DNA of 64,000 nucleotides from an uncultured Gammaproteobacteria bacterium (GTDB taxonomy: Bacteria; Pseudomonadota; Gammaproteobacteria; JACCXJ01), in contig CAVXTM010000018.1 in assembly GCA_963764725.1 (NCBI GenBank), positions 64,001 through 128,000 of the forward strand. The letters are read 5' to 3'. The notes below the pieces were generated by a model, which searched no databases, had not been told where the DNA came from, and saw only the letters and a list, made by a program, of their open reading frames with translations. The translations under genes and the position numbers were made by a program. The number at the start of each line of letters is the position of its first letter. Position 1 is the first letter of the stretch. Positions 9,619 through 11,092 of this stretch are shown here, in pieces.

Positions 9619-9707
9619 ACGCGCTAGTGTAGTGTCTGGTAAATAATTTACATAAAAGCGACTACAAAAATTCCCTCTCCCTCCCGGGAGAGCAACCGTG
9701 TTCAAAG

Positions 9708-10655
9708 TCAAGTGTTTTGCAGCTGCCAAGGGGCATTATTTTTCAACATGGCATTCATAATGGTCAGCAGTTTCCGCATACAGGCGACGATCACCACTTT
9801 GGCTGGTTTCCCCGCCTGTTTGAGTCTCTCAGCGAAGGCCTTGAGGACAGAGTTGCACCGGATGGCGGTAACGGTCGCCATATACAGAACGGCTCTGACA
9901 TCGGCCCTGCCGCCCCAGATGAAGCGCTTACCCCGGTGTTTTCCGCTGTCGTTCGCCAGCGGCGCCACGCCCACCAAAGCTGCGATCTCGCGGCGATTCA
10001 AGCTGCCGAGTTCCGGGCACTTAGCCAGCATCGTCAAGCTGGTGACGGCGCCGATACCAGGAATGCCTTGCAGCAGATCATCCTTAGCCCGCCAGGCCTC
10101 GGAGGCGCGCAAGCGTTTGGTCAAATCAACGTCGAGATCAGCAATGCGCTTATCCAGCCAAGCGATGTGCGCCACTAAGCTTTTGCGTGGCAGTTTCGAG
10201 GCCGTGCCTAAACGGAGTGTTTCTTGAACGCGTATCTCGATCAATTGACGGCGCCGCGTCAGGAGTTCATCAAGCTCACGGGTGTCCGCGTCCTTGATAG
10301 GTCGCACCGCAGGCCGGATGGCGCGGGCGAAGGCCGCCAGGACGGCGGCGTCAACCGAGTCGGTCTTCGCCAATTCTCCCGTCGCCTTGGCGAAATCGCG
10401 CGCTTGACGGGGATTGATGACGGCGAGGGGCAATCCTTTCGCCGCCAGTTCACTGGCCAGCCGCACTTCCAGGCCGCCTGTGGCTTCCATAACGATCAAC
10501 GTCGGTCCAACGGCCACCAGACGCTTGACGAGTTGAGCGATGCCCTTGTCGTCATAAACGACACGCAGGGCTTCTCCAGTGGGTTCAATACCAATATCCA
10601 ACGTGCCTTTGGACACATCAATGCCAACAAACTTCTCTACAGTGTTCTCGCTCAT
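9708..10655 (-). CDS. IS110 recombinase/transposase
   Basis: DEDD residues GIDVSK, MEATG, KTDSVDA; IPGIG and NDSG (Ser) in the C-terminal domain. Confidence 0.95.
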
Positions 10656-10890
10656 ACCCCTCCTTGCAAAAATACGGGCTTACAGGCCCCAGCAACCGTT
10701 CGGGTTGTCGGTGAGAAAACGGCGCGACGCTCTTTGCTCTCCCACGGGCTTGATGTCCCAAGGGCTGGACGAGCTGCCGCACCGCAACCAAAGGTCTGTG
10801 GATTGATGGGATAATCGCCGGCGGCGAACTTCTTTGCCCCACCACCCCCACAGACCGCAATACATTTTCATCAATGTCTACCAACAGAAC
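10656..10890 (-). ncRNA. Predicted bridge RNA of the IS110 element
   Basis: 5' stem (10793-10801/10848-10856), then guide segments matching the target (10769-10761, 10743-10737) and the donor (10699-10691, 10667-10663). Confidence 0.8.
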
Positions 10891-11092
10891 CATACAAGAA
10901 CATACAAGGGCTAGGGTGAGGGGAGGTTAGCACCGTGGTTCTGATCCCCTCATCCCAACCTTCTCCCGGAGGGAGAAGGGGTAAAAATTATGCAAGCTTC
11001 TATCGAGACAGGTTACTAGGCACAGACCGCATAGTCGGCTAAAACGAAGTCGCGCTTATACTTTCCTTATAACTCCACGCATTGGACCGCAC

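Follow-up and report, generated by a model that had tools for sequence, protein, structure and literature searches.

The minus strand of positions 9691-10908 in a 64,000-nucleotide (nt) stretch of contig CAVXTM010000018.1 from an uncultured Gammaproteobacteria bacterium (the whole stretch is referred to here as the window) is very probably an intact mobile element of the IS110 group, that is, an IS621-like insertion sequence with a readable bridge RNA. When this element is compared with its orthologues, the guide segments of the predicted RNA change together with the flanking DNA and with the ends of the element. The genome was scanned as 19 contigs (4.2 Mb) and holds six copies of the element, of which the one in the window is called copy A.

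In minus-strand orientation the left junction of copy A reads CCTAGCC-CT-TGTATG, with the CT core at 10908-10907, and the right junction reads ACGGTTG-CT-CTCCC, with the core at 9692-9691 (Table 1). The non-coding left end is 253 nt long (10908-10656) and the right end after the stop codon is 17 nt long (9707-9691). Long terminal inverted repeats are absent, a 4-bp inverted pair around the donor (GAAC/GTTC) being the sole one, and a right junction of the form ...G-CT is present in 23 of the 24 elements compared. A long non-coding left end with a short right end is given as the mark of the IS110 group and the opposite arrangement as that of the IS1111 group, for which a guide RNA in the long right end and subterminal inverted repeats of 7-17 bp are described (Durrant 2024, PMC11208160). 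We rejected assignment to the IS1111 group because the right end here is so short and all guides are in the left end. As a peculiarity found in copy A alone of the six, its first ten bases are tandemly repeated (CTTGTATGTT followed by CTTGTATGGTT, 10880-10908 on the minus strand), which yields a second right-donor-like site.

The protein encoded by the element matches Pfam DEDD_Tnp_IS110 (PF01548; 78.8 bits, E 4.9e-22) and Transposase_20 (PF02371; 65 bits, E 8.3e-18), and the NCBIfam model NF033542, 'IS110 family RNA-guided transposase', gives it 203 bits, the cut-off being 140. Among solved structures the nearest is that of ISCro4 (9t56; E 1.7e-40, 142 bits, residues 8-311), followed by IS621 (8wt6; E 1.1e-34, 123 bits, full length). 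In the phmmer alignment to 8wt6, whose catalytic columns were counted by hand and whose PDB chain is numbered two above the native protein, D13, E57, D99, D102 and S237-G238 align to D11, E60, D102, D105 and S241-G242 of IS621, the residues named as catalytic in the structural account of that system (Hiraizumi 2024, PMC11208158). By this alignment, the recombinase retains all five IS621 catalytic residues.

Guide segments and their covariation across orthologues

The four guide segments lie at exactly the minus-strand positions claimed for them in the initial annotation of this DNA. Their order in the left end is left target guide (LTG), stem-loop, right target guide (RTG), and then left donor guide (LDG), stem-loop, right donor guide (RDG), which is the geometry of IS621. 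The published scheme has left guides that read like the top strand and right guides that complement it, each of them including the core (Durrant 2024, PMC11208160), and the strand sense of each guide in the window agrees with this. The small stems that had been placed between the two guides of each pair are real helices and are conserved (UGGG/CCCG at 10760-10745 and GGGC/GCCC within 10690-10675); the UGGG/CCCG stem between LTG and RTG also displays compensatory change in the orthologue alignment. The target that the initial annotation had rejoined on paper, CCTAGCC-CT-CTCCC, has a counterpart in the genome: a paralogous empty site on contig C15 (at about 264.6 kb) reads CCCCTAGCC-CT-CTCCC without interruption, in flanks that resemble those of the window.

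When G-U wobble is counted, the LTG pairs at 8 of the 9 bottom-strand positions of its site, with a U-G pair at position 1 and a C-A mismatch at position 3. The U at position 1 and the G at position 5 pair with either of the bases that occur there across the target repeat family (C/T and G/A, respectively), so that the LTG fits CCCAACC at every position. The UAU and GCAAG parts of the split RDG pair with CT-TGT-ATG, the first G of GCAAG forming a G-T wobble; the RDG of IS621 is described with a comparable scheme, A157-U158/C162-G165 with a G161-T12 wobble (Hiraizumi 2024, PMC11208158). The G that follows the RDG (10662) complements target position 7 (C), and both this G and the C of the CA dinucleotide that follows the RTG are invariant in the orthologue alignment. 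The CA and G10662 fit the 'handshake guides' described by Hiraizumi 2024 (PMC11208158).

The comparison drew on a scan of one genome per species, which gave 66 loci; 23 of these, with most of the gene and upstream DNA, were used, so that the comparison set comprises 24 elements including that of the window. Loci with little or no upstream sequence (L013, L016, L019, L028 and L033) and those present as 3′ fragments at contig ends (L038-L075) were left out, and guides were read as alignment columns. Among the 22 elements with a readable 7-nt junction, the RTG is a perfect 7/7 complement of the core and right flank in 12, and the targets of these perfect guides are mutually unrelated: CT-TCAAG in L020, CT-TGGGG in L010 and L024, and CT-GCCCC in L026, with further variety in L035 (CT-AAACC), L032 (CT-AACCC) and L037 (CT-AAGAT). 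Across all 22 elements the RTG is complementary to the right flank at 95 of 110 non-core positions, where label permutation gave a mean of 43.9. The LTG forms Watson-Crick pairs at 88 of 133 non-core positions of the left flank (19 elements), against a permutation mean of 54.5. In neither case did any of 20,000 permutations reach the observed value, and the same was true after repeated guides had been collapsed (LTG 77/119, RTG 58/65). The LDG in turn tracks the varying right end, which is ACAGTTG in L010, L025, L031 and L032, ACAGTCG in L036 and ATAGTTG in L037.

Structure of the predicted bridge RNA and the proposed mechanism

We aligned the bridge-RNA regions of 21 sequences (alignment A1) and imposed an IS621-like structure on them ourselves; L010 was omitted because its 5′ part could not be aligned, L030 because it equals L027 in every bridge-RNA segment compared, and L037 as the most distant. 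On A1, 91.8% of the cells are paired, compared with 30-46% in controls in which the partners were slid, and 14 of the 27 pairs are changed on both sides. None of 500 shuffles reached the A1 structure in any of five measures. The structure that A1 bears out consists of a 5′ stem-loop and, after it, two modules, each made of a stem, an internal loop and a stem-loop. The base stem of the target-binding loop supplies most of the covariation support, while the top stem of the donor-binding loop is invariant and therefore uninformative either way. The donor-binding module overlaps the ribosome-binding site GGAGGGG. The 28-nt hairpin insert in the 5′ stem-loop (about 10809-10836) was seen in copy A and in the orthologues L011, L020 and L024, and is missing from the other five genomic copies.

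These data bear on an older view of IS110 ends, current before 2024, in which the repeated 9-mer and 7-mer would be subterminal repeats bound by protein and would have no RNA role. The LDG is a plain direct repeat of the right end and could, taken alone, be a protein site. However, the helices between and around the segments covary on both sides in the 14 of 27 pairs noted above, which is a property of RNA; the two target segments are opposite in strand sense, as an RNA model demands; and the protein is clearly related to IS621 and ISCro4, whose structures contain RNA. We consider this explanation hardly credible.

The bridge-RNA interpretation leads to the following proposal. The left end would encode a bridge RNA of about 200-235 nt, a length deduced from the position of the junction promoter, which would fold into the 5′ stem-loop and two internal loops. 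The target would be the 5′ arm of a hairpin that resembles a repeated extragenic palindrome (REP), and the second loop (LDG ACGGUUGCU with the split RDG UAU...GCAAG) would pair with ACGGTTG-CT-TGTAT, the sequence formed when the element's own ends are joined. Strand exchange at the CT core would be the work of a tetramer of the DEDD/serine recombinase. Joining of the ends into a circle would set the -35 box of the right end 17 nt upstream of the -10 box of the left end, and since these boxes come together only in the circle, the RNA and the recombinase would be made mainly from the excised form. From homology to IS621 we infer that the system is transcribed and active, in that the RNA would be made, bind the protein and direct recombination, and that its guides would be reprogrammable.

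The promoter part of this proposal follows IS621, for which a promoter reconstituted at the circle junction is described (PMC11208160, PMC11208158). In the window element the joined ends read TTGACT, 17 nt, TATGTT, a reconstitution at the level of sequence only. In 20 of 23 elements, the exceptions being L029, L031 and L037, a hexamer that agrees with TTGACA in 4 or more of its 6 bases is found at one set distance from the end. A promoter scan of the integrated element found no sigma-70-like site on either strand.

Target repeat, genomic copies and mobility

All six genomic copies have the right junction CT-CTCCC, and four of them (A, B, D and F) occupy a single position in one repeat, CC(N3)CC-CT-CTCCC, with the left flanks CCTAGCC (A), CCTAACC (B), CCCAACC (D) and CCCCGCC (F). 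A 9-bp hairpin, CCCTCTCCC-loop-GGGAGAGGG, holds the core in its 5′ arm and is preceded by CCCTCACCC, giving the layout CCCTCACCC-N3-CCCTCTCCC. Genome-wide mapping of the other copies, which the initial annotation had proposed, thus placed four of the six at an identical position with a right junction common to all, so that insertion at unrelated sites is not what the genome displays. That annotation had also ascribed to the element a CT core and a REP target: the core stands, and the target is indeed a REP-like hairpin repeat, but one of this genome and not the REP of Escherichia coli. The hairpin and a T-run at the right flank were flagged as terminator-like.

A genome-wide search with a fuzzy pattern yielded 27 units of this repeat, 15 with a CT core (CCCTCTCCC) and 12 with a TT core (CCTTCTCCC, with a matching GGGAGAAGG arm). 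All four canonical insertions are in units of the CT type. In the doublets in which copies A, B and D sit, the partner arm is a TT unit, and no TT unit is occupied. Of the empty units, about 15 would pair with the guides at every position or at all but one, and one of these 15 is in the window (14936-14968). The doublet that holds copy A (9620-9690 and 10909-11025) lies within a larger repeated unit of about 190 nt with imperfect inverted ends, CTAGTAACCTGTCT ... AGACACTACACTAG; this unit is uninterrupted in at least two other places (C11:275090-275270 and C15:264520-264680) and therefore looks like a small non-autonomous mobile element.

The constancy of the insertion position raises the possibility that the shape of the REP hairpin, read by the protein, decides the target for the most part and that RNA pairing is no more than a second check, in the manner of the 'dual-match' logic of ISPpu10. 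The four canonical insertions, all at one position of the 9-bp stem, tolerate a mismatch at LTG position 3 or 4, and the target stem-loop of ISPpu10 is reported as an extra specificity determinant (10.64898/2026.03.19.712850). On the other hand, orthologues with other guides (for example L020, L024 and L035) occupy non-hairpin targets that still match those guides, and the hairpin here lies 3′ of the core and includes it, whereas the stem-loop of ISPpu10 is described as a 5′ extension. We regard hairpin reading as possible, if somewhat unlikely; it would add to targeting by the bridge RNA and would not replace it.

A second family of the IS110 group in the same genome (C11, 178500-179700, minus strand) has its own bridge RNA and a protein that is 59% identical. 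Its LTG, TTGCGTC-CT, faces the flank TTGCATC-CT, its RTG complements CT-CGGCG, and its donor guide ACAGTTGCT equals its own right end, the donor being ACAGTTG-CT-TGTAC. A relic of this family, ending after about 57 codons, was observed at C2:154400-154870 on the minus strand.

Several points weigh against the interpretation of the element as an intact system directed by a bridge RNA, and some of them concern the guides. When the 253-nt left end was shuffled 20,000 times by mononucleotide, an LTG match of at least 7/9 to the left target and core arose 4,631 times and the RDG 5-mer 5,913 times, so that neither is significant alone; the 7/7 RTG arose 559 times and the 9/9 LDG 29 times, and all four jointly arose once, with neither order nor structure required. 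The window alone thus makes a thin to fair case, resting on the LDG and RTG, and the comparative data are decisive. The orthologue loci in those data were chosen by us from the 66, and in four of them the LTG needed a register shift of one base. With wobble counted, 19 elements with a readable left junction comprise 3 in which the LTG pairs at all nine positions, 6 with one non-pair (including the window), 7 with two, and 3 with at least three (L017, L022 and L023). LTG pairing is also imperfect at the window site and at two of the three other canonical sites, which suggests either that the LTG tolerates mismatch or that some insertions are off-target. On the RNA side, single-sequence folding gave z-scores of -2.0 and -0.8, and in the minimum free energy (MFE) fold the CCC of the LTG is paired with the RTG's GGG, so that folding by itself gives no proof of the loops and does not draw them correctly. 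A scan of 9000-11600 against Rfam, at E values up to 10, found no bridge-RNA family and returned only a weak antisense match to sX15 and three chance-level matches. For the check by folding and covariance models that had been suggested initially, the covariation in A1 supports the structure, the single-sequence fold was uninformative and the Rfam scan matched no bridge-RNA family.

Other points concern the copies and their mobility. The initial description of the orthologue as intact holds for copy A and two others: three of the six copies are canonical at both ends with an intact gene, and the remaining three are not. The genes of copies C (frameshift) and F (which stops at 98 residues) are broken, and copies C and E lack a canonical left junction. 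The public runs that carry the sequence (24) exist as contigs, and in the contigs of four of them (X1, X2, X15 and X16), a form of data that would miss rare molecules, we found neither a circle junction nor an empty-site joint. These observations, together with the lack of a promoter in the integrated state, would also be expected if the anatomy were right and the family no longer mobile in this genome, its copies being relics kept by chance. Against this, the 315-residue proteins encoded by copies A, B, D and E are identical, and no difference separates the bridge-RNA regions of the six copies, a sign of recent spread. Some 15 guide-fitting units are still empty, as for an element that moves at a low rate. 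Moreover, the DNA contigs hold a form of the element with a short left end, which in X2 stands beside another copy of the repeat (loose end at 9686), so that the same element is found in another repeat copy. Loss of mobility is in our view quite unlikely. Contigs from RNA libraries cover 10683-10808 (X15) and 10697-10809 (X16) and agree with the window throughout; since DNA can be present in such libraries and the contigs reveal neither starts nor strand, these matches are evidence of presence in the libraries and not of transcription.

The two aberrant copies were described individually. Copy C (C18:332374-333960, locus L006) has a canonical right junction, and its left end abuts unrelated DNA (GGTGCGGT|TGTATG). 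A direct duplication of 200 bp (96.5% identity) brackets it and contains tRNA-Val(GAC) together with the repeat's right half, and an intact repeat lies upstream. An origin of copy C by 'half-match' recombination, an idea taken from published work, was considered and is not supported, since comparison of the left junction by eye gave no convincing match to the LTG, RTG or LDG. In copy E (C10:250100-251333) the left end has lost its initial few tens of bases, and with them the right-donor site; unrelated sequence stands in their place. Its bridge-RNA region and 315-residue gene are intact, and it could supply RNA and protein, though the usual excision would not be open to it.

Table 1. Features of the IS110-group element and its surroundings in the window
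Feature	Position	Strand	Basis or remark
Whole IS110-group element, 1,218 bp including the CT core at both junctions	9691-10908	-	six genomic copies aligned with flanks, plus 23 orthologue loci
Left target flank (LT) CCTAGCC, end of REP-like unit CCCCTCACCCTAGCC	10909-10915	-	
CT core dinucleotide, left copy	10907-10908	-	sequence, copy alignment
Right donor (RD) TGTAT	10902-10906	-	positions 8-14 = CTTGTAT, bases named for the IS621 donor (PMC11208158)
-10-like hexamer TATGTT in left end	10899-10904	-	concept from PMC11208160, PMC11208158
5′ stem-loop, GGUCUGUGG ... CCACAGACC, with 28-nt hairpin insert	10793-10856	-	MFE fold, copy alignment
Target-binding loop module: base stem, LTG, stem-loop, RTG	10719-10785	-	base stem compensatory in 10/14 pairs
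LTG UCCAGCC+CU, UCCAGCCCU	10761-10769	-	7/9 match to left target + core
RTG GGGAGAG	10737-10743	-	7/7 complement of CT+CTCCC
Candidate handshake guide CA, complement of TG at donor positions 6-7	10735-10736	-	sequence; concept from PMC11208158
Donor-binding loop module: base stem ACCC/GGGU, LDG, stem-loop, RDG	10656-10705	-	base stem compensatory in 3/4 pairs
LDG ACGGUUG+CU, ACGGUUGCU	10691-10699	-	9/9 identical to right end
RDG, split: UAU (10674-10672), bulge UUUU, GCAAG (10667-10663)	10663-10674	-	sequence, alignment, IS621 scheme
Recombinase gene, 315 residues, DEDD RuvC-like domain + Tnp domain	9708-10655	-	sole open reading frame of the element
-35-like hexamer TTGACT in right end, overlapping the stop codon	9706-9711	-	
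Left donor (LD) ACGGTTG, final bases of right end	9693-9699	-	sequence, orthologue right junctions
CT core, right copy	9691-9692	-	sequence, genomic copies, orthologues
Right target flank (RT) CTCCC, 5′ arm of REP hairpin CCCTCTCCC-GGGA-GGGAGAGGG	9686-9690	-	
Partner REP unit of the doublet, TT for CT core (CCTTCTCCC), unoccupied	10947-10979	+	
Unoccupied REP unit, CCCAACC-CT-CTCCC	14936-14968	+	guides pair at every position, two by wobble

Two observations lie outside the element. Beside it, an open reading frame (ORF) on the plus strand (11093-13026) starts with MPRVFLNYRRDD, which may be TIR-like, and overlaps in another frame a 419-residue ORF with TPR-like repeats; the pair may be one frameshifted gene or two overlapping calls. 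In a metagenome contig, a group II intron domain (RF02001, 87.4 bits) stands just downstream of the orthologous element of L024 (L024:2265-2436, minus strand).

Relation to known systems and the antisense sX15 family

Among the closest described systems is IS621 of E. coli (PMC11208160, PMC11208158). As described there, it shares with the window element a two-domain recombinase with the same five catalytic residues, a bridge RNA in a long left end with 5′ stem-loop, target loop and donor loop in that order, left guides of 9 nt with the CT core among them, an RDG that is split and contains a G-T wobble, CTTGTAT as the right-donor bases, a promoter that is re-formed where the circle closes, and insertion into a repeated extragenic palindrome. 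The proteins, however, are only distant relatives (E 1.1e-34, 123 bits), the RTG is 7 nt long here and 4 nt in IS621, the RDG bulge has four U residues instead of two, and the repeat family targeted is a different one, the CCCTCACCC-N3-CCCTCTCCC hairpin. Longer RTGs are reported for some IS110 orthologues (Durrant 2024, PMC11208160). By protein alignment, ISCro4 (PDB 9t56) is the best match among solved structures. ISPpu9 and ISPpu10 of Pseudomonas putida are likewise multicopy IS110-family elements, all inserted in one repeated intergenic palindrome (PMC12288879, 10.64898/2026.03.19.712850). ISPpu10 is reported to mark the ends of segmental amplifications (10.64898/2026.03.19.712850), to which the 200-bp direct duplication around copy C may be compared. 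By their descriptions these elements differ from that of the window in repeat and guides, and ISPpu9 has a small RNA gene downstream of its transposase (PMC12288879), where the window element ends just 17 nt beyond its stop codon.

The weak Rfam match mentioned above is to RF02234 (sX15), at 10651-10791 on the plus strand, antisense to the bridge RNA, with 21.9 bits (E 0.98), where the gathering score is 55. The extent of the model coincides almost exactly with the bridge-RNA region, and of 14 orthologue loci it matches the corresponding stretch in 9, among which L031:1020-1179 (minus strand, 76.2 bits) is the sole one above the gathering score. Membership of the window locus in the sX15 family was rejected, as the match is below the gathering threshold and on the strand opposite to the recombinase gene. 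The family comes from Xanthomonadaceae, and the account of it describes sX15 as a plasmid small RNA complementary to asX7, and not as part of an insertion sequence; both RNAs, which lie on a Xanthomonas plasmid, were confirmed there on Northern blots, and ten sX15 homologues are given for a Stenotrophomonas chromosome (Schmidtke 2012, PMC3300014). It is possible, though unlikely, that the sX15 family mirrors, in antisense, the bridge RNA that belongs to this IS110 subgroup. With no sigma-70-like site on either strand, an antisense promoter is unsupported in copy A. If an antisense transcript were also made, a conserved antisense RNA would restrain the activity of the bridge RNA; a literature search for sX15 with IS110 or bridge RNA found no paper linking them and no such control layer. 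At present Rfam flags such loci only through this antisense small RNA family.

Bridge RNAs have been predicted in most IS110 elements, with thousands of orthologues analyzed, and the element or its relatives may already be listed in that catalogue (Durrant 2024, PMC11208160). The known mechanism is unchanged by the element, which is an ordinary new bridge-recombinase system. It adds an annotated natural example from an environmental bacterium in which the target, the donor, both candidate handshake positions and the putative junction promoter can be read without experiment. For tool builders it provides one more orthologue with a 7-nt RTG. The approximately 15 empty cognate sites and 12 near-cognate sites (TT for CT, a change in the first core base) form a natural specificity panel, and an internal control is at hand in the genome's other IS110 family, whose guides are different.

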